A stretch of DNA of 64,000 nucleotides from the NCBI RefSeq assembly GCF_028641065.1, contig NC_073412.1, positions 7,502,001-7,566,000 on the forward strand, read 5' to 3'. Below, piece by piece: positions 3,601-62,384 of the stretch. The translations under genes and the position numbers were made by a program. Position 1 is the first letter of the stretch, and each line of letters starts with the position of its first letter. The stretch comes from Leucoraja erinacea (taxonomy: Eukaryota). Below the pieces are notes generated by a model. It was given only the letters and a program-made list of their open reading frames with translations. It made no database searches and was not told the DNA's origin.

Positions 3601-5888
3601 CCAAGATAGACTCACTAAGGAGATAATTTAAAAGATATTCACCTGCAAGACAACCACATCTGTAATTGCTGCTTCATGGGACAGGATTCGAGAAACGCCT
3701 ATAAACAGAAAGAAAAGCAATTCCCAACCTGTAACATTCTCATTGGCAAATGTTCAACACAATCAGAGAAAGAAACAAAAATGAATCATTGCTGACAGGA
3801 TCTGGTGTGTAAAGTGTGCAGTGCACTACACATGGAGGAAAGAGTAAGGTATCATCTTAGAAAATGAGCTCTGTATGGAAAGAGGGGGCAGGCATGTGAG
3901 GGAGCAAGGAATTCCACAGATTCACAACTCTCTGGGTGAAAAAGTTTTTCCTTATCTCAGTCCTAAATGGCCTACCCCTTATTCTTAAACCCCTGGTTCT
4001 GGCCTCCCCCAACATGGGGAACATCTAGCCTGTCCAATCCCTTAAGAATTGTATATGTTTCTATTTGAAAGAGAAATAATCAAGGGGACTGGCTGTTCAA
4101 AATAAATAATTGTAGATGACAAAGTTAGACACAAAATGCTTGAATAACTCAACGGGTCAGGCATCATCTTTGGAGAACATGGACAGGTGATGTTTTTGGT
4201 CAGGACCCTTCACTGGAAGAAGGTTCCCAACCCAAAACATTACCTATCAATTTTCTCCAGAGACACAGCCTGATCTACTGAGTTACTTCAGCATTTTGCA
4301 TCTATCTTTGGTATAAACCAGCATCTGCCATCCCTTTGTATTACAGTGAGCTTAACACAGAGAAATGAAACACCTCCAAGCACTGATTAGAAGTAGGAGT
4401 AAGCATCTCCAAACCACTCCACCAATTAATACGATGATGACCAATCTGATTGTAACCTCAACCCTGCTTGCTGCTTGCCTCCGGTAACATTTCCCCCATC
4501 AGGAATTTATCTATCTCAGTCTCGACATTATGAATGAATGTAGACAAAAGTGCTGGAGAAACTCAGCAGGTGGGGCAGCATCCATGGAGCGAAGGAAATA
4601 GGCAACGTTTCGGGCCGAAACCCTTATTCATTCATTCATTCTGAAGAAGTTTATTGGCCAAGTATTCACATACAAGGAATTTGCCTTGGTGCTCCGCCCG
4701 CAAGTGACAACGATATACAGTGACAGTTAGGAATGACACATTAAACATTAATAATAAAACATTATTGATTAAACATGTGAATTAAATAAAATACCAGAGC
4801 AAAAGGAGACTACAGATTTTTGGTTATTGAGTAGGGCTACTGCTCGTGGAAAAAAAGCTGTTTTTATGTCTGGCTGTTTGAAAGACTCTTTCCATTGCCT
4901 TTTGAGGAAGTTATAAACACTCAGCTCTGTGAAGAAAACGTGTGTGTCATTTGGAAGGTAGAGTTCACTAACACTGATGTTCTTCTGAAATGTGTAGGAA
5001 GGAACTGCAGATGCCTGTTTAAAGTGTAGACACAAAAAGCTGGAGTAACTCAGCGGGACAGGCAGCATCTCTGGAGAGAAGGAATGGGTGACGTTTCGGG
5101 TCGAGACCCTTCTTCAGGCTGAAAAGTCACCCCATTCCTTCTCTCCCGAGATGCTGCCTGTCCTGCTGAGTTACTCTAGTTTTTTGTGTCTATCTTCACC
5201 AACACTGGTGTTCTTCATAAAAATAACCCGCAAGTTGTCACCCCACAATCAGCAATGGCTTCAACTGTGGGACCCCTCACAGTTGCAGTAAAACTCTGTA
5301 CAGTCTCTTAATGACTCAGAGCATTAACTTTTCTATCCTGCAAAACTCACAGCTTAAAGGACTTCAACGTTTCTCCACCTTGGTCAAAATAGAGTACCTA
5401 TCTTTCGTTGGCTGTGGGAATGTACTGCTGTATAGCTCACAAGGCGACAGTATATGGCATAGATAGTGCTGGAGTAACTCAGCGGGTCAGGCAGCACCTC
5501 TGGAGAACATGGATAGGTGGTGTTTTGGGACCTTTCTGCTAGTGTTGGACCGAATGGCCTGCTGGTGACAGTGGGCCAACCATTCAAAAGTAATTTACGA
5601 CTGAAACAATACAAGACACCTTGAAATATATGTCTCTCTTTCTGCGAAACAGCCTGTACTCCGGGAACAGGAAATAGATTGTAGCAAACCTTGTGTTTGG
5701 ATACAGTGAACGCGGGAGGGATTTCCTTAGTAATTTACAAACGGGCCGAGCGGACCCCACCCCCCATTTTCCTTACCCAGGGGATGGTTGATGTACGGGG
5801 TTTGCTCCGGGTCTTTGCGCCGCTGGCTTTTGTGTTTTCTCGCCGCAAAATCGGCAGCGTCAAGGATTCGCTGCACGTCTGAGGCCAT
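564..5888 (-). CDS. HDDC3: HD domain-containing protein 3 (MESH1, ppGpp/NADPH phosphatase); 4 coding exons 5777-5888, 3643-3698, 2568-2808, 564-697; 180 aa
   Basis: Spliced translation MASDVQRILDAADFAARKHKSQRRKDPEQTPYINHPLG-VSRILSHEAAITDVVVLQ-AALLHDTVEDT...KLVKLADKLYNLRDL...-GWTEERVEEYFIWA...NIFTR*; HD motif; all introns GT-AG; 112+56+241+134=543 nt, frame consistent. Confidence 0.96.
1561..1625. repeat. (TTCA)n microsatellite
   Basis: Direct reading of the tandem repeat. Confidence 0.9.
1971..2390 (-). mobile_element. CR1/HER1-like LINE 3' fragment
   Basis: ORF2 C-terminus LEFRRLRGDLIETYKILKG...FFTQRVVNLWISLP and TTTCTATG tail repeats. Confidence 0.9.
2568..2808 (-). CDS. HDDC3: HDDC3 exon 3
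   Basis: AALLHDTVEDTDTT...RCTPR; AG/GT boundaries; 241 nt. Confidence 0.95.
3247..3525 (+). mobile_element. HE1-like tRNA-derived SINE
   Basis: tRNA-like head GCACAGTGGCGCAGCAGTAGAG, central domain and LINE-like tail shared with many other copies in the window. Confidence 0.8.
3643..3698 (-). CDS. HDDC3: HDDC3 exon 2
   Basis: VSRILSHEAAITDVVVLQ; 56 nt; AG/GT boundaries; phases fit neighbours. Confidence 0.93.
5090..5117 (-). ncRNA. minimal hammerhead ribozyme core in a PLE terminal module
   Basis: Minus strand CTGAAGA-A-GGGTCTCGACCC-GAAACGTC: catalytic core, stem II, palindromic ACGU stem III, GUC triplet. Confidence 0.7.
5777..5888 (-). CDS. HDDC3: HDDC3 exon 1 (coding part)
   Basis: GCCATGG Kozak context; MASDVQRILDAADFAARKHKSQRRKDPEQTPYINHPL; GTAAG donor. 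Confidence 0.94.
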
Positions 5889-9899: not shown

Positions 9900-10533
9900 T
9901 CAGTCTTCCTGTTTGGGATTATTTAAGTGTTTACTAATCCTATAAAGGAAATTGCCATCCTGGTCATAAAACTCATGGTCTTTCTGGACAACGACAATGT
10001 GATTTTCCTTCCCTCTGCCAGCGAGTTCCTCCAATTCCTGGTCCATTTTCCCAGCAGTATCAAGCTGCTCATCGCTGGAGGTGTCACAGAGTTCCCTGCC
10101 TTTCCCCCTCCCTTTGCCAGTTGCTCCCTTCCTCCTGGTGTTGGCCTTCACAACCCCACCTTGGTCAGCGAGCTCGATACCAGTTCTCTGCTGGATTGGC
10201 TTGGATCTTCCCACCTTCTTCTCCCCGGCTCTGCTCGGAGGGAGAACGGGAAGAGCGTCTGGCCCCGGAGATAGTCTGGCCAGAGGTGCCTTATCCGCCA
10301 CCAGTTTGTAGTCGGCCAGGACTGAGTTCTGCGGTAAACCGATGGCCGCTTGTTTCGTTCGGGGCGAGAGAGTCGGGTTCAGTGCTGCAACTGTCGCATC
10401 CTGTTTCATCCTCCTCTCCGGCGAAGGGACAAACCTACTCCGCAGAACTCTCCGGATGACGTCCTCGCTCACCGAAAACCCCTCGGCCAGCTGTGACACG
10501 CTCCACTCCTCCGGAAACTGTGCCTTCAAAAAC
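9900..10533 (-). CDS. NGRN: NGRN exon 3
   Basis: TGCAG acceptor; FLKAQFPEEW...NPKQED then TGA. Confidence 0.94.
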
Positions 10534-13500
10534 CTGCAACACACCAAGCAAGCAAGAACATCAGCTCAAATCCAGCACCGAACACTGGGAGAGAGATTAC
10601 ACCGACCGGCACTTGTTATTTGGTAGGAAGGAGTAGATGGAGAAATAAAGTAGCCCTCCAACATGTAGGGAAAGTAGCAAGTCCGCCTGAACCTACCTGT
10701 GGACTTCTGGAGCCGCAGTCTCTGGCAGCAAGCGGCTGTTCCAGACACTCCAAGCCGCTGAATAGTGTTCTCCCGACGACCAAGTCCCATCTCCCAGCGA
10801 GAGGGCCTGAACATCGGGCCGCCGTTGCGGCAACTGCGGAGGCCTCAATAGTCACGACCATGGGTGAATAAGGAGAAGAGGACTGGACTTTGTGCCTTCC
10901 CTCACAGTGGGAACAATTGTGGGGGGATCTTTTTATGTTTTATGTTAAATTCTTCTTTAATGTGTTGTCTTACTTTTGTTGGTGTGCTGCAAATGGCAAC
11001 TCAAATTTCACTACACCAGAAATGGTGTATGTGACAATAAATGTCCTTTGTCCTTTTGATCTCCGAGTTGCTAAACACTTTAATTCTCCTTCCCATTCCC
11101 ACATTGACCTATATGTCCTAGGTCACCTCCATTGTTAGAGTGAGGCTAAACACAAACTGGAGGAACAGCATCTCATATTTTGCTTGGGCAGCTTACAGCC
11201 CAGTGGTATGAATTTTGATTTCTCCAACCTTGTAACCCAGGCATTCCCTCTCTCTCTCTATCCCCCCCCACAACCCACCCCCCACTCCACCCCATCCAAG
11301 TCGCACCAGCTTTTTATTCTCACCCACCAATGGCATGTTTCCTTCATCATTACTTTTTTTCATATCTTTCATTCATTGTTCTTAATCTCGCTACATCATC
11401 TTCTATATCTCTCGTTTCCCTTTCCCGTGACTTTCAGTCTAAAGAGGGTCTCGACCCGAAACGTCACCCATTCCTACTATCCAGAGATGCTGCCTGTCCC
11501 GTCGAGTTACTGCAGCATTTGTGTGTCTATCTTCGGTCCAAACACCCATAATCGACCTTGACTCAGGCACTGTCTGTGTGGAGTCTGCACACTCGTCCTG
11601 TGACCACATGGGTCTCCCTGAGTGCTCTGGTTACCCGCACATTTTTCCTTCCCCACCCAACCCCAATTACATTTCACGCATGATATGATGCATCCCGATA
11701 GGACCTCAATCCCGATCAGATGCTTTCTGTGTAACGGTTACCTGATTTGCTGCAGGGCCTCTGTAGTTAGAGTTCTCGTTGGAGCTCCGCCACTCTCAAA
11801 CTCCGCCTGAATTTTCCGGTATTTTATGGCTTTCCACTTTCTCTTCTCAGCCCTGCAGGTTAAGGGGAGATGCTCAGCATGATCCTTCCAAAAATCCACT
11901 TGTCAAAAAAGATCTTTTACAAACGGTACAAACTAACCATGTGTCATTGCAAACATTGTTTAAACTTTCTTTTCCGTCTGAATGATGCTTCAGAGCAGGC
12001 TATTTGTTTTGGTTCATAGAGTCGTAGAGGGATACAGCGTGGAAACAGGCCCTTCGGCCCAACTTGCCCACACTGGCCAACATGTCCCAGCTGCACTAGT
12101 CCCACCTACCCGCGTTTGGTCCATATCTCTCCAAACCTATGCTATCCGTGTACCTGTCTAACTGTTTCTTAAATCTTGGGATAGTCCCTGGCGCAACTAC
12201 CTCCTTTGGCAGCTCATTCCATACACGCACCACCCATTTGTGTGAGAAAGTTACTCCTCAGATTCCTACTAAATCCTTTCCCCTTCACCTTAAACCTATG
12301 TCCTCTTGTCCTCGATTCCCCTACTCTGGGCAAGACCCTGTGCATCTACCCGATCTATTCCTCTCATGATTTTATACACCTCTATGCAATCACCCGTCAT
12401 CCTCTTGCCCTCCAAGGAATAGAGTCCCAGCCTACTCAACTTCTCCCTATAGCTCACATCCTCAAGTCCTAGCAACATCCTCATAATTCTTCTCTGTACC
12501 TTTGTCTAATGAAGGGTCTTGACCCGAAATGTCACCCATTCCTTCTCTCCAGAAATGCTGCCTGACCCGCTGGGTTTCCCTGGCTTTTTGTGTCATTAAC
12601 TATCTGGTTCACTCTTGTCCTGAAAGGTTGGGGGGGTGGGTGTGTCCCCCAGCTACTCTTCAGCAACTCTGAATCAATCTATCCCCAACCCTCAGCAGAG
12701 TAGCTGAATCTTAATTGTGTAGAAACAAAGAACTGTAGATGCTGGTTTACGCAAAAGGACACAAAGTGCTGGAGAAGCTCAGCGGGTCAGGCAGTAATCT
12801 CTGGAGAACATGAGTCGGTGACATTTCAGGAACCCTTCTTCAGACTGAGTTTAGAGGGGAGAGGGTAAGAAAGCTGGAAGAGAGGAGGGGCAGGACAAAG
12901 CTTGGCAGGTAATTATTTCTTAATTTCACGGACATTTAAGAAAAGCCCATAAATGCAAACAACATGGATTTTTTTTCAAAAAGCCCCAGATCCCAGCAAA
13001 CTATCTAGAACAGAGAACATTAAATAATTAATCTTAGTGCTAGTTTCCTGCAGCATTGACATCAAAACATAACTGGAAGTATTTCCCTGCAAGCAAATAT
13101 TGGGAGTTTCAACAGCATCAAAACATTTGGACCAGGCTCAGTTGGTCATCTGGGTCAGCATGGAGGAGACGGGCCGAAGGGCCTGTTTCAGATCTGTAGG
13201 GCACTAAAACATAACTTGGCATGGTTTTGGTTAATTATACTGGTTAGTTTAGTTGATGCACAATTAGTTAGTTACTAAGTGAAGGGACTGTAGATGCTGG
13301 TTTACACCGTAGAGTAGATAGAAAATGCTGGAGGAGCTCTTTCTCACACATGCCTTCTCTTTATCACCCATTTATCCTCATTTCTCACCCATCCCTTCTC
13401 TTTCTCCCCCCCATCCCTTCTCTTTCTCACCCATCCCCCTTCTCTTTCTCCCCCATTCCTTCTCTCCAGAGATGCTGCTGAGTTACTCCAGTATGTTGCC

Positions 13501-28400: not shown

Positions 28401-31400
28401 CAACCTTCGTCCCTGTAGGAGGCCACCAGGTACTAAAACCTGGCTAGTTGATTACCCAGTCCCATCGCACTGTGCTCAGACCTTCCTTCCATCTAGATAT
28501 GGACGCATCGACTACCTAAAAGCCTCAGGCCCACACCTGGCCCGGACCAAACTCAGGAACATTCAGGTATAGCTACTTCCCTGAAGACTACATTAATAAC
28601 CCGGACCACCAAAAACTCTCTGATTATAATAACCCATTATCTGTTATTTGCACTTTATCAGTTTATTTATTCATGTGTGTATATATTTATATAATGGTAT
28701 ATGGACACACTGATCTGTTTTGTAGTAAATGCCTACTATGTTCTGTGTGCTGAAGCAAAGCAAGAATTTCATTGTCCTATACAGGGACACATGATAATAA
28801 ACTCACTTGAACTTGAACTTGAACTTTAGCTTGCACTAAACGTTATTCACATTGTTCCCTTTATCATGTATCTGTACACTGTGGATAGCTCGATTGTAAT
28901 CTTGTGGTATCTTTCCACAGACAGGCTAGCACGCAACAAAAGTTTTTCACTGTACGTGACAATAAACTAAACCAAACTCAACTTATTTTCACACAGTGAT
29001 TTCTCTACTAGGGGAAAGAAACTCCTCACATTGACCACAGGATCTCTTGGACAACTGACAAGCCAGCGGTATGAAGGTAGATTTCTAATAATTTCAATTA
29101 ACCCCTGCATTCTCTCTGGTCACCCCCCTCCCTCACCATAGTCTTCCTACTAGTTCCACTGTTTGCATCCTTGTAACCCTTCGTTATCACCTCTTTCCCA
29201 GCCAACAACGGACCATTGTGGGCTCCACCCTTCCTTGGTCATCTGTTGCCAGCCCTGCTTTGTTCTGGCCTTTTCTTTTACCTCCAGTTTCTTTGCCTCT
29301 ACTTTCAGTCTGAAGAAAGGTCCCAACCCAAAAACATCACCCATCCTTTTTTCTCCAGAGATGCTGACTGACCCGCTGAGTTACTCCAGCACTTTGCGTC
29401 TATCTCCGGTATAAACCAGCATCTGCAGTTCCTTTCCCCACAAGAACTCTGTATGTTGCTGCGAAGTCACCTCCCTTCCTTCTAACCAGAAGCCAAGCCG
29501 ACTAGTCTCTGTTCAAATATCCTAATGCTAATTTCAGTCACTGACTGTGTCCACCCGGAAGTTAGATACATCACTTGGGGTGATACATCACTTGGGGTGA
29601 TACATCACTTGGATTCTCGTTTTTAATTGCAATCAAAATTCCCTGTTGAACGAATGGAGATTAAACGTGGTAGGTTTTCCAACTCATGTGCCCATTTAGA
29701 TATTAACAGTGGGCTCAAGGAGTATCAGGCTTCCAACATGCATATGTTAGCAAGCATCAACTGAAGAGAGAGTTGGGAAGCTGCCAAGAGAAGGGATAGA
29801 TTTCATCATCAACAACAATTTTACATCTGCAGACATCAGGTGACACACTTCGTTGACCAAAGTGCTGGCCACACACGTGGGTCCTGAAATGTCCTGTAAA
29901 TTTTAGAGGGGATGAAATAGCGAGGCACATATAAGTGGGCTAAGGCAATATGTGGAATCAAGGGCATTGGGCTGACAGTGGTGAAGGAAGAAGACTTGTG
30001 GAAAGCAACAAGAGGAATTTTAAAAACGAGGCAGGAATTGTTTTAAGTGGCAGAGAGCACAGAGCTCTTATAGAGGTGTACAAAAGTCATGAGCGGAATA
30101 GATCGGGTAAATGCACACAGTCTCTTGCCCAGAGTCGGTGAATCGAGGACCAGAGGTTCAAGGTGAAGGGGAAAAGATTTAATAGAGATCTGAGAGGTAA
30201 CTTTTTCCACACAAAGGGTGGTGCGTGTATAGAACAAGCTGCCCGAGGAGGTGGTTGAGGCTGGGACTATGTGCAAATATCCTAATGGTGAAGGAAGAAG
30301 ACTTGTGGAAAGCAACAAGAGGAAATTTAAAAACGAGGCAGGAATTGTTTTAAGTGGCAGAGAGCACAGAGCTCTTATAGAGGTGGGACTATCCCAATGT
30401 TTAAGAAACAGTTAGACAGGTACATGGATAGGACAGGTTGTGAGGGATATAGACCAAATGCAGGCAGGTGGGACTAGTGCAGCTGGGACATGTTGGCCGG
30501 GGTGTGGGCAAGTTGGGCTGATGGGCCTATTTACATACTGTATTAATGGATGGGATTTATATAGCACCTTTCTAGATACTCAAGGTGCTTTACATCGCAT
30601 TATTCATTCACTCCTCAGTCACACTCGGTGGTGGTGAGCTACTTCTGTAGCCACAGCTGCCCTGGGGCAGACTGACGGAAGCGTGGCTGCTAATCTGCGC
30701 TTACGGCCCCTACCACCACCAATCACTCACACACATTCACGCGCAGGCAAAGGTGGGTGAAGTGTCTTGCCCAAGGACACAACGACAGTATGCACTCCAA
30801 GCGGGATTCGAACCGGCTACCTTCCGGTCGCCAGCCGAACATTTAGCCCTTTGCGCCACCTGCCGCCCAATACTTACTCTATGACTGTAAAAGTTGGGGA
30901 TAATGGGTAAGTGGAAGCTACTGTGAACAGAATGTGGGGAGAAGAAGCTCAGGTTTGACAAATCAATGGAGGCAGAGTGATAGTGCTATTGCATTACAGC
31001 ACCAGGGACCCTGGTTCAATCCTGACCAAGGATGTTGTCTGTACAGATTTCGCATTCTCCCCATGACTGCGTGGGTTTGCTCTGGGTGCCCTGGTTTCCT
31101 CCCACATTCCAAATAAGTGAAGGTTTTTTAAGTTGATTGGCTTCCGTAAATTGTCCCTAGTGTGTAGGATAGAACCAGGCGATCGTTGGTCAGTGCAGGC
31201 TCAGTGGGCCGAAGGGCCTGTTTCCACACTGTATTTCTAAAACTAAACTAAACCAAACGCCAGAAAGGGAAGGACAAAATGGTGACACACCTAATCAAGA
31301 CAAGATCCAGTGACCACAAATCTCCGGTTACACAAAAAAGCTGGAGAAACTCAGCGGGTGCAGCAGCATCTATGGAGCGAAGGAAATAGGCAACGTTTCG

Positions 31401-34400
31401 GGCCGAAACCCTCAAGGGTTTCGGCCCGAAACGTTGCCTATTTCCTTCGCTCCATAGATGCTGCTGCACCCGCTGAGTTTCTCCAGCTTTTTTGTGTGAC
31501 CACAAATCTCCTCCTGACTACTTAGGGAAGGGTCCCGGTCTGAAACGTCGCCTGTTCCATTGTCTCCACAGATGCTGCCTCACACCCACTGAGTTCCTCT
31601 AACACTCTGTGTTTGCTGTAGAGGGTTAACCCTGCAGCCCGCTCACCTCACTAAAAAACAGGTTTGTAGATCGGAATAATAGATGGTTACTAAAATATAC
31701 CTCAACGTTGACTAGTGAAGCTGAAATGCCGGCTGCTATGTGATTAATATAAATATCAACTTACAATGAGCAAGAAATGCAAGTTATAAAGGTAGAGAAT
31801 ACTCACTGTGGCTAATCTTCCTCTTTCCCCTGAGGGTGTTAAATCATGGTAACCCTTTAATATATCTTCCCCTGATCTATCTATTGTACTTGAATTTCAC
31901 TTGATTGCATTCATGTATAATATTATCTGATCTGTTTGGGTAAGATGCGTTTTTTCACTGTCCTTTGGTACACATGACAATAATAAACCTGCACCTGCCA
32001 TTGTCACAAAAAAGCGGGACATGCAGCATCTCTGGAGAGAAGGAATGGGTGACGTTTCGGGTCGAGACCCTTCTTCAGACTGGTTACACCACAGAGATGT
32101 TGCCTGCCCTGCTGAGTTACTCCAGCTTTTGGTGTCTATCTTGGGGTTTAAACCAGCATCTGCAGTTCCTTCCTACACTTTAAGTAGCGTCCATTCTGCA
32201 ACCTGCCATCTTAGAATTATACTCTTTCCTATCCAGATGAGGAACAACCTGACTTTGCCCTCCTTAGTCAAGGGGTATCAAACTGCTCTATATCTCAGTC
32301 ACTATCATACTGATTGCAATCCATTCAGACATGAAACACGACTCATAACACCAACATAACGTCTGTTGGGTGTGTCAAACCTCGCTAACACTCTAGAAGC
32401 AAGTTTACTCTCCAAGTTGACTGTGATTAGCATCTCTGTAAGAAATTCATTTTACACATTTTCACCCACAAATTGTTACTGCCACTCCAAGTTTCCCATT
32501 CAAGGTAGGGTTTGTCACCCTGATGGGCTCCCATCTTTTATTTCCACATTCGTCATCAGTTTAGATCATTCTTGTGCTGAAAATAACAAGCCAGGAACAA
32601 GTCTAGGAAAATTTGGAAGGACACAAAGTCCTGGAGTAACTCAGCGAGGCAATGGGTCGAGTTTTGGGTTGAAACCCTAAGAAAGGTCTCGACTCGAAAT
32701 GTCACCCATTCCTTCTCTGCAGATGCTGCCTGTCCTGCTGAGTTACTCCAGTTTTTTGTGTCTATCTTCAGTTTAAACCAGCATCTGCAGTTCCTTCTTG
32801 AACAGTACCAACAAACCTAGTCTCCTAATTATTATCAAACAAAAGTCTTTAAATGACGATCAACTAGGGTAAAAAAAAAAAATTAAAAAAAAGGACGCAA
32901 AGTGCTGGAGTAACTCAGCGGGTCAGGCAGCATCTCTGGAGAACTTGGGTAGCTGACGTTACAGGTCGGGACCCTTCTTCAGACCCTTCTTGATCTAGGG
33001 TGTCCTGACTAGGCACCACTGTTGCTGATGTTTTGGTCAATGAGATACAAATGACAAGAACTAATAACTCATTGTATTCGTTTGTGAATATCTTTATTAC
33101 GAAGGGCGAGGAGCAGATGCATCTAAATTAATCAGACTTGAGAGAGATCCTGAAAGGTCAGTCGGCAGAGGTGAATGGGATGAGAACGTATTGGCAATTG
33201 TTCTGAGACCTACAACAGAATTAAAAAGGTGTCATTTAACATCAGTCACTGGAGAAATCGATTTTCCTGATGTTTCTTTCAAGGAAGTTTCTTTTCAGCA
33301 GTTATTTTACTCAAAATGAGAGCAATCAATGAACCATTCCAAGCACATTTGGCCACCACAATGCCAAGGGCACAGTTAGATACCGAACCAGATTTTATCC
33401 TTTATCCCTCTGGCATCAGCAGGTAAATTATCCCAACTCCAGCCATGTAATACAATCCAATTCAGGACTTGCCTTGACAATGCTCAAGTTCATTGAATGC
33501 AAGATCCTTCCTATTTATACAGAAGATAATCTTGGCTGGTTTTGAAAAGCCTTCAGGAACTGAATATCTCAAACACAAGGCACTGCACGTTATTACTAGT
33601 GTGATTAACAGACTACATATTGATCAAGGTCATCAAAATTATCTTTGCTTAATGCTTCGTTCAATCCTCTGGCTGTTTTTATCCTTATTTGCTTTCAAAC
33701 GTAATGGTGAAACATTATTAGGTGATAAGACCAATTATATCATAAGACTAGAACAGAATTAAACCGTTCAACCCAATGAGTCTGTTCGACCATTCGATCA
33801 TGGCTGGTCTATCATTCTCATGCCTTTCCCCTGTAACCTTTGATACCCTTATAGCCCTGTCCCACGGTACGAGTTCATTCAAGTGCTTTCCCGAGTTTAA
33901 AAAATAGCAAACTCGTGGTAAGCACGGAGAATGAACGTAGCGGGTACGTCGGAGCTCGGGGACATTTCTTAGATTCAGATTCAGATTCAGATTCAATTTT
34001 AATTGTCATTGTCAGTGTACAGTACAGAGACAACGAAATGCATTTAGCATCTCCCTGGAAGAGCGACATAGCAAATGATTTGAATAAATAATAATAAGTG
34101 TCCGGGGGGGGGGGTGGTGATTGGCAGTCACCGAGGTACGTTGTTGAGTAGAGTGACAGCCGCCGGGAAGAAGCTGTTCCTCGACCTGCTGGTTCGGCAA
34201 CGGAGAGACCTGTAGCGCCTCCCGGATGGTAGGAGGTTAAACAGTCCATGGTTGGGGTTCAAAACGCTAATGGCAGGTACTCGGGAAGACTCGCTAACGG
34301 CAGATAAGCACAGGAAGATTCGTGAAGATTTTTCAACATGTTGAAAAATGTCCACAAGAGCCCCAAGTACCGACGAGCGGCCATTACCGTAAATCTCCGA

Positions 34401-37400
34401 GTTCGAATCAGGGCAAACTCGGGCGAGCTCTTGGAATGAACTCGTACAGTGGGGCAGGGCTAATAGGAGCAGAATTAAACCATTCAACCCATTGAGTCTG
34501 TTCCACCATTCGATCATGGCTGATCTATCATTCTCATGCCTTCTCCCCGTAATCTTTGATACCCTTACTAATCAAGCCCTTACTAAACATCGTTGGTAGA
34601 CCTTCCAATTCCAGGAGCAACAGCATGCGAGAGGAAAGCAGCTTTCTTTCCATGGCAGACAAAAATGCTGGAGAAACTCAGCGGGTGAGGCAGCATCTAT
34701 GAAGTGAAGGAAATAGGCAACGTTTCGGGCTGAAACCCTTCTTCAGACCCGAAACGTTGCCTATTTCGTTCGCTCCATAGATGCTGCCTCACCCGCTGAG
34801 TTTCTCCAGCATTTTTGTCTACCTTCGATTTTCCAGCATCTGCAGTTCCTTCTAAAACTTTCTTTCCATGGCTGTGCTTAGCTTGAGCACTTGCATGCAC
34901 AGTGCACTCCCTGCATTGCCTCTGCCACCGTTACATGCTCCCTGCTTCCTTCTGCTGTGTTTTGTATCTACAGGCTAACCTCTCTGGCTGGTTGTTTAAG
35001 CCAGGCAGAGTAACAGGGTCAGAGTTACAGCTAGGAATCATAGAGTGGGTGATGCAGGTTCGTACAGGATCTGCGTGCCAAGTAGGAACAAGGGCCAAGA
35101 GGCTGGCACAAGCAGATGACAGCATTGACAATATAGCTTGAAGCTGTAAGCAACATGCAGAAACTCTGCTGGTCTTCGTTGGCCCTTGTACCTTTCGTGG
35201 CCACTAACTTGCAGGACCTTGTCGTCCACTTGGGGATGGTTCCACAAGGGGTATTCCTGTAATTTTGGGCATTTCCTCAGAGTTAATGTGCTGCTTTCTT
35301 CTGCAAAAATTAGAGGATGGCTGTCGAGAAGAGACGCAGAGATATGAAAGATATGCATCGACGAGTGGATGGGACGGGAAATGGAGCAAGGAGGAAGAAG
35401 GAAGTATGTTGAGCCGTGTGCAAATGTGAAAGAATTCCGAAGCCATAAAATGAAACCAACTCAATAGCCGGGTGTACACAAAGACCGACTAATGTGGCTT
35501 CTGACTTTTGGAATCCAAAGACAAGGAACTCTTGAGAGACAAAGATGCAGCAGTCGGAAGCATTCAACCTTTCTTTTATTAGTAGGGGTGAAATAATTCA
35601 CAGGTACACAAAAATGATGGAGAAACTCAGCGGGTGCAGCAGCATCTATGGAGCGAAGGAAATAGGCAACGTTTCGGGCCGAAACCCAAAGGAAATAGAC
35701 AACGTTTTGGGTCGAAACCCGAAGGGTTTCGTCCCGAAACGTTGCCTATTTCCTTCGCTCCATAGATGCTGCTGCACCCGCTGAGTTTCTCCAGCATTGT
35801 TGTGTACCTTCAATTTTCCAGCATCTGCAGCTCCTTCTTAAATAATTCACAGTATTATTTGAAGTAAAATCTAATAGTCCAGAAAATCTGTTAATTCACA
35901 TCCACCAAATTCCCAAGACTGTTGGATTGTCAGAGTTTTACAATAGCACGGAATGCGTATCCTTTATCACAAGAGTCAGAACAGGAAACATTAAAAATGT
36001 CAGGCTAATTAATTAACAGCAGATATATAATACCACCACTTAACAGTAAATCAAACGAGTTCCGGACATTAATGATCGTCGCATTCTGGGAATACCTTCA
36101 ACCATTCACAAGTTTGTGGACTTGACTATTTGCACTAACCTCAGCAAGAATAGATGAAATGTTTGCCAGAAGCTCCGGCATTTGTGTGTTTCATGCTTCT
36201 CTCCATACCCCCTGATCCCTTTAGCCACAAGGTCCACATCTAACTCCCTCTTAAATATAGCTAACGAACTGGCCTCAACTACCTTCTGTGGCAGAGAAAT
36301 TCCACAGATTCACCACTCTCTGTGTTTGAAAAATGTTTTTCTCATCTCAGTCCTAAAAGACTTCCCCCTTATCCTTAAACTGTGACCCCATGTTGTCTCC
36401 TGATGCTGTCTCCACCGATCTACATTATCTGTTAATGAATGCTTAATGTCTTATCTTCACCGTTTTACCCTGTGCTTGCAAGGCCCACTGCTGAATGAAT
36501 TTAAAATGGCAGATTAATATGGACCTTTCAAGATGGCAGCAGGCAGAGGAAAGGAACGATGGCGGTGAGTAGGTTGGGGGCTCACCCAACTCACCCGCTG
36601 CAGGAGCAGCCCCGTGGCATGGAGGCTGATCACTAGCCTGGTTTAGTTTAGAGAAACAACATGGAAACAGGCCCTTTTGCACATTCAGTCCACGCCGACC
36701 AGCGATCCCCGCACACTAACACTATCCGACAATTTACAATTTTACCAAGCCATTTAGCCTACAAATCTGTACGTCTATTGAGTGTGGGAGGAAACCGGAG
36801 CACCCGGGGAAAACCCACGCAGGTCACAGGGAGAAGGCACAAACTCCATACAGACAGCACCCGTGGTCAGGACAAAACCCTCGTCTCTGGCCTTGTAAGA
36901 CAGCAACTCTACCTCTGCGCCACGGTGCCACACAAGGCGAGGAAACAACGTGTTCACGGGCCGATGGCGAAGCATCGTAGTGGTCGATGTGGTGGAGCTC
37001 CATTAGATTGGGCGCTGCTCCAAGTCGCAAAGTGCGCAGAATGAACAGAGCAGTGGAGCAGCGGCAGAGGACATCAACATATCATCTGGCCAGGCCGAGC
37101 AATGCAACTCCAGCCCAATGCCGCCAACAGGATATGGCGGCATTGGGCCTATGTGGCCAAGTTAAGACTCTAGCATTCTGTTTTAAATTTCAGATTGAAG
37201 GGTAAATAAATAGGGACTAAATCACGGGGAGTCCTGTGTACTGACTCAGTGTGGTCTACTGGGGTGGAAGATTGCAACCTTCACATGGCCCGCCCTGTTT
37301 CGACTAATGCAATCAACTTGACGTGCACAAACGGAAGATCAAATAGAACAAGTTGTCCTCCAACTTTAGGCTGTGCACGCCACACGCAAGAAGAAGAAGA

Positions 37401-40400
37401 AGTGGTCCACTGTCTTACACTCTGTACTTAGTATGATTGTGCCCAATGTATGGTAGGATTGGCGCTGAACTGTGTGCAAAAAACAATTTCACTCTACTTT
37501 GGTACATGTGACAATAAAGTACCATTGGACCATCGCAAAGATATATATCTCAAAATCTCTATGGAGCTGTTCCATTTGTAACCCTGTACTGTAAATGCAT
37601 TCTGGCATGATCAACAAATATATTCCTGCTTGAAGCCAAGCTCTGGGAATAAAAATGGCATTGACCCCTTCACTCATGCCTGATGGACAGTGGCCCAGCG
37701 TCTGGTCTTGGGGAACAACACCTTTCTCCCTGCCTCGACTTGATCCAGAGACACATCGGATATGCCAGAGGACATATTTTTCAGGTTTTGGTGGGCACCC
37801 CCTCAGTTGCTTTATTATGGCGGGTCCTGGGAGTTACTGATTTAGGGTCAGAGTCATACTGCAGAGAAACAGGCCATTTGGCCCACTGTGTCCATGCTGA
37901 TTAGGAACAGCACCTCATACTTTGCTTGGGCAGCGGTATGAATATTGACATCTCTAATTTTAAGTAATCATTGCATGCCCTCTCTCTCCGTCCCTCACCC
38001 ATCCTAGACGTCCTGCTGGTTTTACTGTATCCCCTCGTTATCACCTCCTCCACAATGGACCATTGTGGGCTCTTTGATCATTGGTGCTGGCTCTGATCTG
38101 TTCTGAACCTTTTCATATCTCTAGTTTCTCTATCCCCTGAATCTCAGTCTGAAGAAGGGTCCCGACCTGAAACATCACCTATTCCTTTTCTCCAGCGATA
38201 CTGCCTGACCCGCTGAGCTACTCCAGCGTTTTGTGTCTCTCTCTATTGTACTTATTTAAGACTGGTCTTATTTAAGAGGTCATGTAAGACTGAGGTGAGA
38301 AAAAACGGATTCACCCAGAGAATTTATGGAATTCCCTGCCACAGAGGGTAGTGGAGGCCAAGTCACTGGATGGATTTAAGAGAGTGTTAGATAGAGCTTT
38401 AGGGGCTAGTGGACGGCAGGCACGGGATATTGATAGGGGACGATCAGCCATGATCACAATGAATGGCAGTGCTGGCTCGAAGGTCCGAATGCCCTCCTCC
38501 TGCACCTATTTTCTATGTTTCCATGTTATCAATACCAGTCCCTGCACATAGTCCATGCCAAGGTGCCTATATGCATGCTTCACCATTTATTTATCTGTGC
38601 TGCCAATTTCAAGGATCTATGCACATTCCTTGACAATTCAATTTATTGTCTAGATGCTTCTTAAATGTTGAGTCTCTCTCTCCACCACTTCCTCCTGCAG
38701 CACGCTCCAGATTCCAGCTGCTCTTTGACAAGGTTTCCCCTCAGATTCCCTCTAACCTTCCTATCTATCACTTGATACCCATGTCCTCTTGTTTTATACA
38801 TCCCCAACAAAGGAAAAAGATTCTTATCGAAGATAGATACAAAGCGCTGGAGTAACTCAGCGGGTTAGGTGAAAAAGGAAGGGTAATGTTTCGGGTCGGG
38901 ACCCTTCTTCAGACGTAAGATTCTTCAGACGTTTGCTCCATCTTATAAATTTGTACACCTCCCTCAGGTCACCCTTCAGCCTCCATTCCAGGGAACACAA
39001 ACTCAGCCTCTCCAATATTTTCTTGTCACTGAAATGTTCCAATCCAAGCAACATACCACATTCTACCTACAAGGTGGCAGCCTAAACGGCACATGATACT
39101 CCAAGTGTGGCTAACCAATAATTCAATGTTTTATGAAATTGTAACATGATGTCCCTTCTCTCATATTATATGCCAAGATAACTCTATGGCTATCCTACCC
39201 ACCTATCTACCCTTTCAGGGATCTATGGACTTAAACCCCAGGTCTCTCTGTTCATCAACACTCACTAGGGTACCACCATTTACCATGTACAACCTGACCT
39301 TCCAAAATGCATCATTTCATAATTGTCAGGGATAAATTCCATCTGCCATTGTTCAACTTTCAAGATGACTAATATCTAGCCGGATCTCAAGACAATCCTC
39401 TTCCCCATCTCTGACATCACAAACTTTCGTATCATCCGCAAACTTGCTCATCATACTACCGTCTCCTACATTCATATCCAAGTCGCCAATGTATAATCGC
39501 ATACATCAAGGGAGAACATTTCTGAGAATCATCCACAATTTCTGCTTGGTCTCGGTCATTCCCCGTGGCAACTATGATCAGAAGGCACATTTTTTGATTT
39601 CCAGACTCCATTAGTTTCCATACATTTCACAGATGGTATATGGTACAAAGCAGTTCATCCAGAAAGAAATATCCAAGATTAATGCACAGAACTCATCCAC
39701 ATCGAGAGAATAAATCAATACTTAAAATACCATCAGATCAGTTCATCTGTTGGATGCATGTCTATGGGGCAATGAGGAATCAGCAGTAATTACTGGGAAT
39801 AGTACCTCTTTCTTTAGGGTGAAACAGTTGTTGTACTTCCTGTAGACTCGTTCCAGTGCAGACGGCTCGGCCCCTGACTCGCCATGCAGGTGGGCGTCCT
39901 TTGGTTCCTTCACCTTTCTTCCCTTTGCCAGCTCTTTCGGTTCGTTCTTCTGTCGAATCTCCTCCAGTTGGTGCCTGATCATAAAGAACCCGATAACTAG
40001 TCAATCAACATACTCTGCTGAAGAAGGGTCGCGACCCCAAACGTCAAGAGGGGAATTCCAGAACCAGGGGTCACAGTTTAAGAATAAGGGGTAGGCCATT
40101 TGGGACTGAGTGTGGAAGGATGATGGGGTACCTCATTGAAATTACCGAATAAAGAAAGGCCTGGATAGAGTGGATGTGGAGAGGATGATTCCACTAGTGT
40201 GGGAGTCTAGGGCTAGCGGGCATAGCCTCAGAGTAAAAGAACATTTGATCTAATTTGATTTAATTTATTGTCATTGTCTTCAATTAAGAGACAACAAAAT
40301 TATTTTCCCCTTAGTCATACAAATAATAAAAACACAGAACACAGTCGTCCACAACACAAACATCCCCACAGCAGCACCAAAGTTCCCCACTGTGAGGGAA

Positions 40401-43400
40401 GGAACCAAAGTCCAGTCAACCTCCTCACTGATGTTCCCCAATGTTCACCCATGGTCGTGGCCTCCCGAGCACCAGGTAGTCACCGCTACGGGCGGCCCGT
40501 TGTTCAGGCCCTCTCGCCGGGAACGAAGGAACCCCAACGTCGAACGGGAGAACATCTTCAGCGGCTTGGACCTCTGAACCAGCCGCCTTCCACCGGAGTC
40601 CGCGGCTCCCGATGTCCACAGGCCGCGCTGGGCGGAGATTCGTGCTGGTGATCCCCGGCAAAGGGTCCCAGGACTCAGCGACTGAGGCCAGCGCCGCCCG
40701 CATTGGGAGCTCCGCGCCCACAGCTTCGCGATGTTGGAGCAGCGGCCCAACACTCCGGAGCTCCAAACGGCGATCGCCCGCTCTGTGATGTTTCCAGCAT
40801 ACTCGCTAGAATTTAGGAGATTGAGAGGGGATCTTATAGAAACTTACAAAATTCTTAAGGGGTTGGACAGGCCTCAGCCCGCCAGGACAAGGGGTGCTTA
40901 AGGATAAGCCTTTAAAACTGGTCTGGTGGTGAATCTCTGGAACTCCTGCCACAGAGGGTAGTCAGGCCAGTTCAAATTTAAGGGGAGTTAGATGTGCGTG
41001 GCCAATCCAGTTAGAGAGAAGCCGCGAGGAGGGATATGGGCGAGGGCGGGACTCAAGATAATAGTTTCATCCTTGCCAGGAAGCGACTGAAGGACGGTAC
41101 CCCCTTACCATACCCTCTTCCCCCCACATAAAATACGGAAAAAAACTTAAAAAACACACTTTAAACAGAACAAAATAACAAAAGACAACCAGACTGTGGG
41201 AGGAGGCAGCCAGTAACATCACCACCGGATGTCCAACATGTACCTTTACAATGGAGATAAGGAGGAATTTCTTTAGTCAGAGGGTGGTGAATCTGTGGAT
41301 GTTATTGCCAAAGACGACTGTGGAGGCCAAGTCATTGGATATTTTTAAACCAGAGAATGACAGATACTTGAAGGTACACAAAAAAGCTGGAGAAACTCAG
41401 CGGGTGCAGCAGCATCTATGGAGCGAAGGAAATAGGCAACGTTTTGGGCCAAAACCCTTCTTCAGACTGATGGGGGGTGGGGGGGGGCGGGGAGAAGAAA
41501 GGAAATGACAGATACTTGATTGGTAAGGGTATCAAAGGTTATGGGGAGAAGGCAGGAAATGGGGTGGAGAGGGAAAGATAGATCAGCCATGATTGAATGG
41601 TAGCGTAGACTTGATGAGCCTAGAAGACTACTTCAGCTCCTATGAATTATGAACTTTTATGAAATGGTTTTCCTGCCTACAGTTCATACCTGGCACATTC
41701 TTCCCTCGCTCTGGAAGCGACCGTCTCCTGAAAAAGCGATCCGCTTTGTTTAAAGAAGTTGTCGTATTTCTCGGAGTCCAGCCGTGGGTAAATCAAGTGG
41801 AAGGCTCCAAGGTGTTCCTTCTCATACTTCTCCACCTGCTGGAGCCAAGCCGACTGGTAGTTCTCGTATTGTTCCCGTCTGTGGGGGTAACGGATGGCAA
41901 ATCAGGAGATGGGACAAAACACATCACTCACTGACTTCGTCAAGAATCAGAATCACAGAGTGATACAGTGTTGAAACAGGCCCTTCGGCCCATCTGGCCC
42001 ACACCGGCCAACATGTCCCAGCTGCACTCGTCCCACCTGCCTGCGCTTGGTCCATATACCTCCAAACCTGTCCTATCCAGGTACCTGTCTATCTGTTTCT
42101 TAAACTGTGAGTCTGAAGAAGGGTTTTGACCCAAACCGTCACCCATTCCTTCCCTCCAGAGATGCTGCCGGTCCCGATGAGTTACTCCAGCTTTTTGTGC
42201 CTATTAACTGTTTCTTAAACATCGGGATAGTCCCATTCATAAATCATGGGAGACCCCTTCCACCCCTACAACGGACTGTTCCAGCTGCTACGGTCAGGCA
42301 AACGCCTCCGTTGCCATGCGGTGAGAACGGAGAGGTTGAGAAGGAGTTTCTTCCCAGAGGCAATTCGGACTGTAAACGCCTATCTCACCAGGGACTAACT
42401 CTACTGAACGTTTTTCCTTCCATTATTTATTATGTAAAAGAATATGTGTGTTATGATTGTGTTTATAATTTATTTGGTTGTTTTGTTGTTTGTCTTTTGC
42501 ACAAAAGTCCGCGAGCATTGCCACTTTCATTTCACTGCACATCTCGTATGTGTATGTGACAAATAAACTTGACTTGACTTGACTTGACTTGAGCCTCAAC
42601 TACCTCATCTGGCATTTTGCTCCATATATCCACCACCCTTTGAGTGAGATATTCTGAGATATTTCTACAGTCGTGGAGTGTCACAGCTCAAAAATGGGCC
42701 TTTCTGCTCTCCGTATCCATGCTGACCTTCAAGGTCATCTATTTGCCCTCATTAAAACCTCCCCCCACCCCCTCACGTTGAAGACCTTCATAAATGCAAC
42801 AGTTTAAAACAACTTTAGAGATACAACACAAATACAGGGTCTTCAGCCCACCGAGTCTGCGCCGACAAGCGTTCAGCCCATACACTGGCACGATCTTACA
42901 CATTAGGGACAATTTCCAGAAGCCAATTACTAGAAGCCTGTACGCCTTTGGAGTGTGGGGGAAACCGGAACACTCTTAGAAAACCCACGTGGTCACGGGG
43001 CGAACGTACAAACTCCGTAAAGGCAGCACCCGATGGTCGGGATCGAACCCGGGTCTCTGACATTGAAAGGCAGCAACTCTACCACTGTGCCACCAACTGA
43101 TAACATTCGCCACATGGACAGGTCACAGGATAAGCAGTTGCACAATGTAAAGCATAATCGAATCCTTCCTCGACCGTGATGACTAGAATTACACACAATA
43201 CTCCAAGTGTGGCCTAAACACTGCTTTGTGAAGTTTCAACACAGCATCTTGAGGTTTGAACAAGAGTTTCAGCCCGAAACGTTGCCTATTTCCTTTGCTC
43301 CATAGATGCTGCCTCACCCGCTGAGTTTCTCCGGCACTTTTGTCATCCTGAGTTTTATGTTCTGCGCCCTGCCCTATGAGGGCAAGCATGCCAACCGCCT

Positions 43401-60830: not shown

Positions 60831-60927
60831 GGGGGGGGAGGGGCAGGAGGAGGGGGGGGGGTGGGGGAGGGGGAGGGGGAGAGGGGAGGGGGCGTGACGT
60901 GACGTGACGTGGCCAAGATGGCGGCGC
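60831..60927 (+). promoter_or_regulatory. GDPGP1 proximal promoter: G-tract, tandem TGACGT (CRE-like) sites and YY1-like CAAGATGGCGGC at the start codon
   Basis: Direct motif reading. Confidence 0.55.
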
Positions 60928-62384
60928 CCATGGAGCGCGGTTCGGGGCCGGCAGACGACGCTCGGACCGGGCAGGACGAGCAGGAAAGCCCGAGGCCGGA
61001 GCCGCCTTTCGTGTACACGGAGCGGGACTTCATCCGGAGCGGCGTCGGGTGGTCGGGGCCGGGGTCGGGGTCGGGGTCCCGCCTGGACCGGGCCCTGTTG
61101 TCGGCCTGGGCCCGGCGCTTGGCTGCCGGCTGTTTCCGATACCCGCTGCGGGGGCCCGAGATACCGAGCCGGGAGCTGCCGGGGCCCCGCCGCCTGCTGG
61201 CGCAGCTCAACACCCAGCGGGCCAGCCAGCGCCGCCCGCCGCAGACCATCGCCGGCCTCCGGCAGCCCTTCGACCCGCAGCGCTTCAACTTCACCCGCGT
61301 CCCCGCCCGGGAGATCCTCTTCCCGCTGCGCCGGGGCGGGGGGACCGAGGCCCGGGTCGGTGGCCAGCCCGATCCCGGGGCCCCACCTGAGGCCCAGGCA
61401 GGAGCTCAGCCCGAGGCTCAGGTCCAGGTTGGGGTCCAAACTAATCCCGGGGGTGTGGCCGACGTCAGGCCTCTGTCTGAGGCCAAGGACCAAGCGCATT
61501 CCGGGGCCCGAACTGATCCAGGGGCCCAGCCCCAAACCCAGGTCAAGCCTGAGGCCCAAGCTGGGCCTCTGTCCGATCCCTGGACCCTGCACGAGGGCCA
61601 GAACCAGGCCAATGCTCGGCCCGAGGACCGAGCCCATTCCCGGGCCCAACTTGACCCCGATCCCCTGCCCGAGGCGGAGCAGGACGCCCTGCTGATCATC
61701 AACGACAGCCCGCTGGAGCAGGGCCACGTCCTGCTGGTGCCGGAGCCGGAGAAGCTGCTACCGCAGACACTTACGCGGGCCTCGGTACTCCGGGCTCTGG
61801 AGCTGGTCTTGCTGAGCTCTGACCCGGCCTTCCGGGTGGGATTCAACAGCCTGGGGGCCTTCGCCTCGGTCAACCACTTGCACCTGCATGGCTTCTACCT
61901 GCGGCACCGGCTGGAGGTGGAGTGGGCCCCCACCGAGCCGCTAGGTGTAAACGGGGCTGGGGCCCTTGTCCACCGGCTGTGCGGCCACTACACCCGGGCC
62001 CTGGTGCTGTACTCGGACGGCGGGGACTATGAGGAGGTGGCAGACACTCTGCTCGCCATCATCCACCTGCTGCTGGATCGCTCGGTGGCCCACAACCTGC
62101 TCCTGACCCGGGGCTGTGCACTGGGGCCACAGCCCCCAGACCCCGACTCCCGGGACGGGGTGAGGCTCATCCTGTGGCCCCGCCGTTCCTGCTTCGGCGC
62201 CAAGGACGGCTCGGCCTTTAACGTGGCATTTTGCGAGCTGGCCGGCTTCCTGCCCGTGAAAACGGCCCCGGACTTCGAGACTCTAACCGAGGAGTCGGCG
62301 CTGCGGATAATCGGGGAGCATCTGCTGCCGGCCGAGGAGTTCCAGCAGCTGTGCGCTGAAATAACGGGACTCTCGCTGCACTGA
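60918..62384 (+). CDS. GDPGP1: GDP-D-glucose phosphorylase 1 (HIT-superfamily, VTC2-like), single coding exon, 488 aa
   Basis: AQLNTQRASQRRPPQ, QPFDPQRFNF, INDSPLEQGHVLLVP, FRVGFNSLGAFASVNHLHLHGFY (HIT HxHxH motif), FNVAFCELAG; AAGATGG Kozak context. Confidence 0.96.
   Translation: MAAPMERGSGPADDARTGQDEQESPRPEPPFVYTERDFIRSGVGWSGPGSGSGSRLDRALLSAWARRLAAGCFRYPLRGPEIPSRELPGPRRLLAQLNTQRASQRRPPQTIAGLRQPFDPQRFNFTRVPAREILFPLRRGGGTEARVGGQPDPGAPPEAQAGAQPEAQVQVGVQTNPGGVADVRPLSEAKDQAHSGARTDPGAQPQTQVKPEAQAGPLSDPWTLHEGQNQANARPEDRAHSRAQLDPDPLPEAEQDALLIINDSPLEQGHVLLVPEPEKLLPQTLTRASVLRALELVLLSSDPAFRVGFNSLGAFASVNHLHLHGFYLRHRLEVEWAPTEPLGVNGAGALVHRLCGHYTRALVLYSDGGDYEEVADTLLAIIHLLLDRSVAHNLLLTRGCALGPQPPDPDSRDGVRLILWPRRSCFGAKDGSAFNVAFCELAGFLPVKTAPDFETLTEESALRIIGEHLLPAEEFQQLCAEITGLSLH

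Follow-up and report, generated by a model that had tools for sequence, protein, structure and literature searches.

A stretch of 64,000 nucleotides of Leucoraja erinacea (assembly GCF_028641065.1, contig NC_073412.1, positions 7,502,001 to 7,566,000 of the forward strand; hereafter the window) contains four short inserts built from the terminal-repeat module of a Penelope-like element (PLE) and bounded by long target-site duplications (TSDs). These inserts are probably 5'-truncated PLE insertions that arose independently at each site through a pair of target-primed reverse transcription events, each nicked strand serving one of them. This reading is based on the terminal-repeat module itself, on the common ends and the TSDs of 12-19 bp, on the pairing of one tailed with one untailed end, on sequence variants carried in both arms and on a hotspot at which the arms stop. 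Positions in the element take the C that opens the hammerhead core CTGAAGA as +1, minus numbers lying upstream, and the cut of the hammerhead ribozyme is presumed to fall between +28 and +29 according to standard hammerhead numbering. The genome searched comprised 2.19 Gb, and a random sample of 141 stretches at fixed coordinates plus the window (1.46 Mb) contained 469 clusters of the module, 98 of them young; 38 of these 98 were head-to-head.

As had been reported in a preliminary description of this DNA, each insert lies between two exact copies of a direct repeat (16, 15, 13, and 16 bp for inserts 1, 2, 3, and 4, respectively). No further copy of any of these repeats occurs in the window, and the distance between the copies amounts to 170, 201, 236, and 132 bp. 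Inserts 1-3 each consist of two inverted arms placed head to head, and insert 4 has a single arm. Of 49 short or tailed palindromes, 39 were flanked by an exact repeat of 12-19 bp (median 15), and only 5 of 1,443 swapped flank pairs reached 10 bp, showing that the flanking repeats are not due to chance. The empty site of insert 4 was recovered in 57 pairs of flank hits (not de-duplicated) that carry the duplicated stretch once; no paralogous flanks, and hence no empty sites, were found for inserts 1-3 in the about 1.9 Mb compared. The earlier proposal that these are retroposed PLE termini with true TSDs, and not products of cut-and-paste transposition, is thus borne out, the comparison with an empty site applying to insert 4 only.

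The arms stop preferentially at the 5' edge of the hammerhead. Most short arms end between -8 and +11; half of the youngest arms (17 of 34) end at -5 to +11, at 15-25 times the per-base rate elsewhere, and in the random sample 82 of the 102 arms that reach +11 stop by -8, a further 18 of 120 arms stopping at +12 to +25. Short single arms that directly adjoin a TSD behave alike: 13 of 14 end at -5 to +2, in a count that by design left out arms reaching beyond -9. Exact centre junctions numbered 3,707 at the core edge, 1,550 centred on a 15-nt palindrome of stem II at +11 to +25 and 309 at the predicted cleavage site, and 8 of 81 arms ended at +26 to +33, a frequency about 2-3 times that of the neighbouring positions. 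The inversion points of inserts 1-3 (+8/+7, -1/+18, and +9/+6, the last with a 33-nt internal duplication) sit at or beside the hammerhead core, as the preliminary description had noticed, and precede the predicted cleavage site by 10 to 30 nt. Its suggestion that the junction may be set by the ribozyme region is valid to the extent that the junctions are not random but concentrated around the hammerhead; that the ribozyme cut sets the junction is not supported (309 against 3,707 plus 1,550). The hotspot coincides with TCAGT just before the hammerhead core, a word that we take to be initiator-like, and also adjoins a pyrimidine tract followed by CAG, so that a protein roadblock is possible. 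The available parts of earlier reports mention an initiator-like TCACT in a pseudo-long terminal repeat (pLTR) of Adineta (PMC3846280) and an internal promoter in Penelope of Drosophila virilis (PMC2377424).

The two arms of head-to-head copies are related to each other in several respects. Among 33 palindromes of the random sample, 29 had one tailed and one untailed end, 4 were untailed and none was double-tailed, and a set of 30 picked by their junctions gave 26, 4, and 0, respectively. When both sets were pooled, 55 of 63 copies had one tail, 8 none and 0 two (chi-square 37.8, P 8e-10), and 2 of the 8 copies counted as lacking a tail look tailed on inspection. Rare variants occurred in both arms 17 times in 52 elements (shuffled mean 1.3, maximum 8), and at common variant sites the arms were concordant in 102 cases and discordant in 0 (shuffled mean 34). 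The arm ends are also correlated (Spearman 0.78, 15 pairs), 5 of 7 long pairs ending within 40 nt of each other (P 0.002). The untailed arm extends further in 7 of the 15 pairs and the tailed arm in 3; as either arm may be the longer, neither is simply a copy of the other. At the start sites, the overlap with the TSD amounts to 1.4 nt (n 35) and 2.1 nt (n 27) vs about 0.6. Two facing tail matches lie 153 bp apart at G000:C1:83216755-83216908, possibly a two-tailed palindrome and an exception to the rule, and a palindrome with two untailed ends (L086 2890-3150) has flanks that mirror each other for about 40 bp and no direct TSD.

From these features we infer the nicking, the priming, the use of a single RNA and the position of its end. 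An endonuclease would make staggered nicks about 15 bp apart, and each target 3' end would anneal, through a match of 1-4 letters, to one of two fixed positions at which copying starts, about +94 and +130, both priming events using one RNA. The two complementary DNAs (cDNAs) would reach the same limit and then join head to head, often through local self-complementary words; less firmly, the usual limit may be the RNA 5' end at the initiator-like TCAGT just before the core. Extension over a long distance on just one strand would leave a single arm, as in insert 4. This scheme has a counterpart in PAc, a Poseidon element of Anolis carolinensis, whose purified protein nicks and extends both strands, is predicted to form a dimer and starts reverse transcription at two internal sites that bracket the tail, hammerhead cleavage of the pLTR not being needed (PMC11167929). 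A more specific version, in which a dimer of the PLE protein uses one RNA for two rounds of copying onto the two nicked target strands, with fixed start sites separated by 36 nt, and the mini-inserts represent run-off products covering the initial 95-135 nt of a transcript that begins at TCAGT, is proposed only tentatively. If it were true, the mini-inserts would map the promoter and the antisense self-priming model for inverted pLTRs would be replaced, and single-arm copies retaining the start could serve as templates in the manner of short interspersed nuclear elements (SINEs).

Several observations weigh against double priming. The exact genome match counts, whose drop from 30,586 to 11,259 between +11 and -1 and from 20,211 to 8,311 between -1 and -9 speaks for the stop hotspot, also lose copies to mutation, 13 downstream bases keeping 0.56. 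The RNA data (four raw RNA runs and one contig run, mostly with reads 90-95% alike and under another organism label), which do not come from 5'-end libraries, listed no site where many molecules begin. Insert 1 is a true exception to the pairing of ends, with both ends untailed, and the automatic count gave 8 of 63 untailed copies. Besides the shared variants, 104 rare variants are confined to one arm and some of the 17 shared ones are markers of minor subfamilies; shared variants could also stem from later arm conversion or from a single locus giving rise to two RNAs. Among the first 50 junctions, two strings recur, 12 and 4 times; the second requires one untemplated base, and they leave room for a small self-propagating sublineage. 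As to PAc, this element belongs to another clade, Poseidon, in contrast to the Neptune-type linker of the element described here; in the part of the report available, it showed no strand bias in the start site, whereas in the present copies the two sites are paired with each other; nor did RNA and cleaved DNA share homology there (PMC11167929), in contrast to the overlap of 1-4 nt seen here.

Self-priming by fold-back of a template or cDNA at a local palindrome, in which one arm is copied from the other and staggered endonuclease resolution leaves the one-sided tail, accounts for the variants present in both arms and for the near-symmetric arms. The 1,550 stem II junctions are centred on the 15-nt palindrome and others on short palindromes, and a fold-back of this type was put forward for Adineta PLEs (PMC3846280), with the tail ascribed to endonuclease resolution (PMC8557442). 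This explanation is nevertheless unlikely, considering that either arm may run hundreds of bases beyond the other, that single-arm copies, with the TSD directly adjoining, share both the two ends and the stop hotspot, and that the two ends resemble the internal reverse transcription start sites shown on sense RNA in vitro (PMC11167929). It is very improbable that hammerhead self-cleavage creates an RNA 5' end that fixes the junction: the small excess of ends at +26 to +33 and the 309 junctions found there are in its favor, but exact junctions upstream of the cut are seventeen times more numerous, the 3' cleavage product cannot yield arms that include +1 to +28 and cleavage was dispensable in vitro for the Anolis PLE (PMC11167929).

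The thousands of near-identical short palindromes, together with the few junction strings and the 33-nt duplication that recur, also in the RNA reads, would be compatible with a self-propagating non-coding hairpin family, resembling miniature inverted-repeat transposable elements (MITEs), that is copied in trans by the PLE protein from few palindromic masters; as reverse transcription starts internally, any RNA bearing the module could serve. Such a family is improbable in view of the 23 different strings among the first 50 of the 3,707 core-edge junctions, of the presence of the same junction class in subfamilies A, B, and C/D, of the junction string of insert 1, which occurs in 4 copies with differing backgrounds and in both orientations, and of the identical anatomy of copies bearing an open reading frame (ORF); a hairpin of 167 kcal/mol would presumably also make a poor template. 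Long palindromes are unstable, and longer ones may have been inserted and later shrunk by central deletion between short repeats until they became stable, which would agree with the near-symmetric arm ends and with centre rearrangements such as the 33-nt duplication. Shrinkage is quite improbable, since the hotspot is also seen in single-arm copies with an adjoining TSD (the 13 of 14 short singles mentioned above) and young palindromes with arms over 1 kb persist.

The inserts are the short end of a PLE size continuum, not a separate family of MITE type. The 30 youngest tailed copies, chosen by the tail alone (first 30 of 2,035), range from 77 to over 1,554 bp. Twenty long loci were selected from a list of 150 for long frames or facing endonuclease hits. 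Both head-to-head ends were present in 10 of them, each of which combined one tailed and one untailed end with a TSD of 13-18 bp; the head-to-head anatomy, ends and TSDs of the short inserts thus match those of full-length ORF-bearing copies. The distinct young hairpin retroelement of the preliminary description is not supported by this continuum, nor by the diversity of the junction strings and the different subfamily backgrounds of the insert 1 junction. MITEs are short, form hairpins and are present in many copies; their length and ends are fixed, their terminal inverted repeats are symmetric, their short TSDs are of constant size and they depend on a partner transposase. This class was rejected on account of the size continuum, the asymmetric ends and the TSDs of 12-19 bp instead of fixed short ones. 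For strings other than the two recurrent ones, a self-propagating non-autonomous family with an inherited breakpoint was not recovered either, as the strings are diverse (23 among 50 junctions) and the junction classes cross subfamilies. A duplication of 33-34 nt at the inner arm end, like that of insert 3, recurs in many palindromes (L046, L101, L105, L128, L057) and is also present in the RNA reads; it is likely a product of slippage between short direct repeats.

The coordinates of the four inserts are given in Table 1. The arms of insert 1 (31326-31412 and 31415-31501) measure 87 nt each and are 99% alike, and they contain the perfect palindrome of 83 bp described before (31330-31412 and 31415-31497), the right end of which extends into the TSD; the end of the direct arm overlaps the start of the TSD, where the element matches 5 of 6 letters. 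This insert is among the minority of palindromes with both ends untailed. The catalytic core is missing from both strands of inserts 1 and 3. The inverted arm of insert 2 holds the whole minimal hammerhead motif on the minus strand, with the core at 34740-34746, and insert 4 has its core at 41459-41465 and the GAAA box changed to AAAA. Older copies of the same PLE terminus (75-85% alike) are found in the window at 31527-31599, 32000-32180, 32617-32800, 32890-32985, 38145-38238, and 42110-42200, some of them likewise head-to-head with one tail.

Table 1. Parts of the four inserts, in coordinates of the window; signed numbers in the last column are element positions.
Feature	Position	Strand	Remarks
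Insert 1, left TSD copy	31310..31325		16 bp
Insert 1, inverted arm	31326..31412	-	+8 to +94; untailed end; without hammerhead core
Insert 1, centre and direct arm	31413..31495	+	starts at +7/+8; untailed end
Insert 1, right TSD copy	31496..31511		
Insert 2, left TSD copy	34642..34656		15 bp
Insert 2, inverted arm	34657..34748	-	-1 to about +90; untailed end
Insert 2, direct arm	34748..34857	+	+18 (within stem II) to tail end; tail about 34824-34857
Insert 2, right TSD copy	34858..34872		
Insert 3, left TSD copy	35591..35603		13 bp
Insert 3, inverted arm	35604..35687	-	+9 to about +92; untailed end
Insert 3, tandem duplication	35688..35720	-	33 nt; inner end of inverted arm
Insert 3, direct arm	35721..35839	+	+6 to tail end; tail about 35809-35839
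Insert 3, right TSD copy	35840..35852		
Insert 4, left TSD copy	41356..41371		16 bp; within host repeat whose paralogues have the site once
Insert 4, single 5'-truncated arm	41372..41503	-	about -38 to +95; untailed end
Insert 4, right TSD copy	41504..41519		

The module is the terminal repeat of a young autonomous PLE of Neptune type. Long copies run upstream from it into a pyrimidine-rich 3' untranslated region and the coding end of a GIY-YIG domain, and 150 scored matches to the GIY-YIG protein end (150 of 97,916 candidates) were all identical. A single ORF encodes a reverse transcriptase, a cysteine linker motif and, C-terminally, an endonuclease of GIY-YIG type; in a 775-aa frame (L181), RVT_1 (E 4.7e-06) and GIY-YIG (E 0.006) remained below the Pfam cut-offs with motifs visible by eye. 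The linker motif, CNRKRCNTC, points by its sequence to the Neptune clade, and a cysteine linker motif is common to Neptune and Nematis (PMC8557442). A natural full-length copy, L186, comprises a unit of 4,143 nt; its 5' pLTR is truncated, an inverted arm without tail lies at one end and a tail of 36 nt at the other, and the TSD measures 16 bp; the combination of a partial tandem pLTR, an inverted 5' copy and a one-sided 36-nt tail is shared by L186 and nine further long copies. Both L186 and insert 2 contain the CUGAnGA and GAAA boxes, an extra base before stem II, a G-C first pair, a palindromic stem III and an NUH triplet, and are predicted to carry a minimal type I hammerhead motif. When the window was scanned against Rfam, 0 hits reached the gathering score, and the fold of the monomeric module showed neither special stability nor a hammerhead shape (z 0.25).

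Other features were observed in the long copies. The 5' half of L186 has a long frame at 3830-5520 (-) with tandem proline/glycine-rich peptide repeats, in another frame than the reverse transcriptase part. At 1623-1755 (-) of the same copy a pyrimidine tract ending in CAG lies directly before the core, and a word resembling a splice donor occurs at the ORF stop, an arrangement that was likened to the intron end of D. virilis Penelope; read depth in this interval falls about tenfold in poly(A) reads and not in single-cell reads. The idea of a spliced template was rejected for the one donor form examined, which had 12 genome-wide matches, about chance level by estimate, and no spliced joint occurred among the joints listed from RNA reads (15 of 148; 15 of 35). 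In L211 and L227, the 5' end is formed by a piece of tail in direct orientation and the start of the body, followed by an internal deletion and an untailed finish, and both resemble the 'primitive' Penelope form with flanking direct tail repeats.

L1 twin priming, in which the second target strand primes a second cDNA and a 5' inversion results, has two cDNAs that copy different parts of the RNA; the arms described here differ in copying the same part from two fixed sites. The shape of the inserts is already known, as an inverted pLTR, a one-sided tail and a TSD have been published for PLEs (PMC3846280, PMC8557442, PMC8969392). According to the available text of these sources, Adineta Pen2a has a head-to-head inverted 5'-truncated pLTR, a tail of 30-40 bp at one end, a TSD around the whole unit and an overlap or palindrome at the inverted junction (PMC3846280; scheme in PMC8557442). 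In the skate, both arms are only about 60-130 bp long and occur in thousands of copies, the TSDs measure 12-19 bp vs 8-10 bp in Adineta (PMC3846280), and the present data favor double priming over the self-priming proposed for Adineta (PMC3846280). In a further difference from PAc, the ORF here appears to begin after the tail. The minimal type I hammerheads of metazoan PLEs share the core boxes, the extra base before stem II, the G-C pair and the palindromic stem III, and truncated PLEs had already been given as the source of solo motifs and of opposite-strand pairs spaced by 100-700 bp (PMC4209133); the accessible portion of that report gives no breakpoint map, and many palindromes of the skate lack the core. 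Non-LTR (long terminal repeat) retrozymes are likewise non-coding, related to hammerheads and derived from PLE pLTRs, but the excerpt available describes head-to-tail tandems with a ribozyme in each unit (bioRxiv 10.64898/2026.07.22.740005); this class was rejected for the inserts, which are head-to-head or single and have their own TSDs. A literature search turned up no description of mini-palindromes of PLE origin in cartilaginous fish and none of a counted one-tail rule, of shared variants or of a stop hotspot, although supplements, subscription papers and Repbase/Dfam may describe the family.

These data bear on the origin of the inverted repeats and the one-sided tail of PLEs, for which antisense self-priming (PMC3846280) stands against both-strand priming shown in vitro, given without an explanation of the inversions in the text available (PMC11167929). 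In the skate genome, short products of recent origin number in the thousands (exact centre junctions alone amount to at least 5,257), and their ends, shared variants and stop points provide rules of formation that can be put to the test. Annotators should enter such hairpins as PLE stubs instead of MITEs. The inserts put many perfect hairpins of 80-100 bp into host transcripts, and the module and strand-switch joints were seen in poly(A) reads of the RNA data, indicating that such hairpins are transcribed somewhere. The preliminary description had also regarded the inserts as a source of long intronic double-stranded RNA. The palindromes are indeed predicted to fold as strong hairpins (-166.9 kcal/mol for insert 1), but an intronic location was shown only for insert 4, which forms no hairpin: it lies between a TTLL6-like exon at about 41689-41880 (-) (E 2e-16 to TTLL6) and a probable next one near 39870-39980 (-). 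A 140-aa frame at 35038-35460 (-) may be a later exon of the same TTLL6-like tubulin polyglutamylase gene. Elsewhere in the window, a GC-rich stretch with long frames on both strands includes a 493-aa frame at 60903-62384 (+) without a Pfam match; the sole match in a Pfam scan of nine long ORFs of the window was Neugrin, in a 221-aa frame at 9903-10565 (-) (E 7.6e-31).

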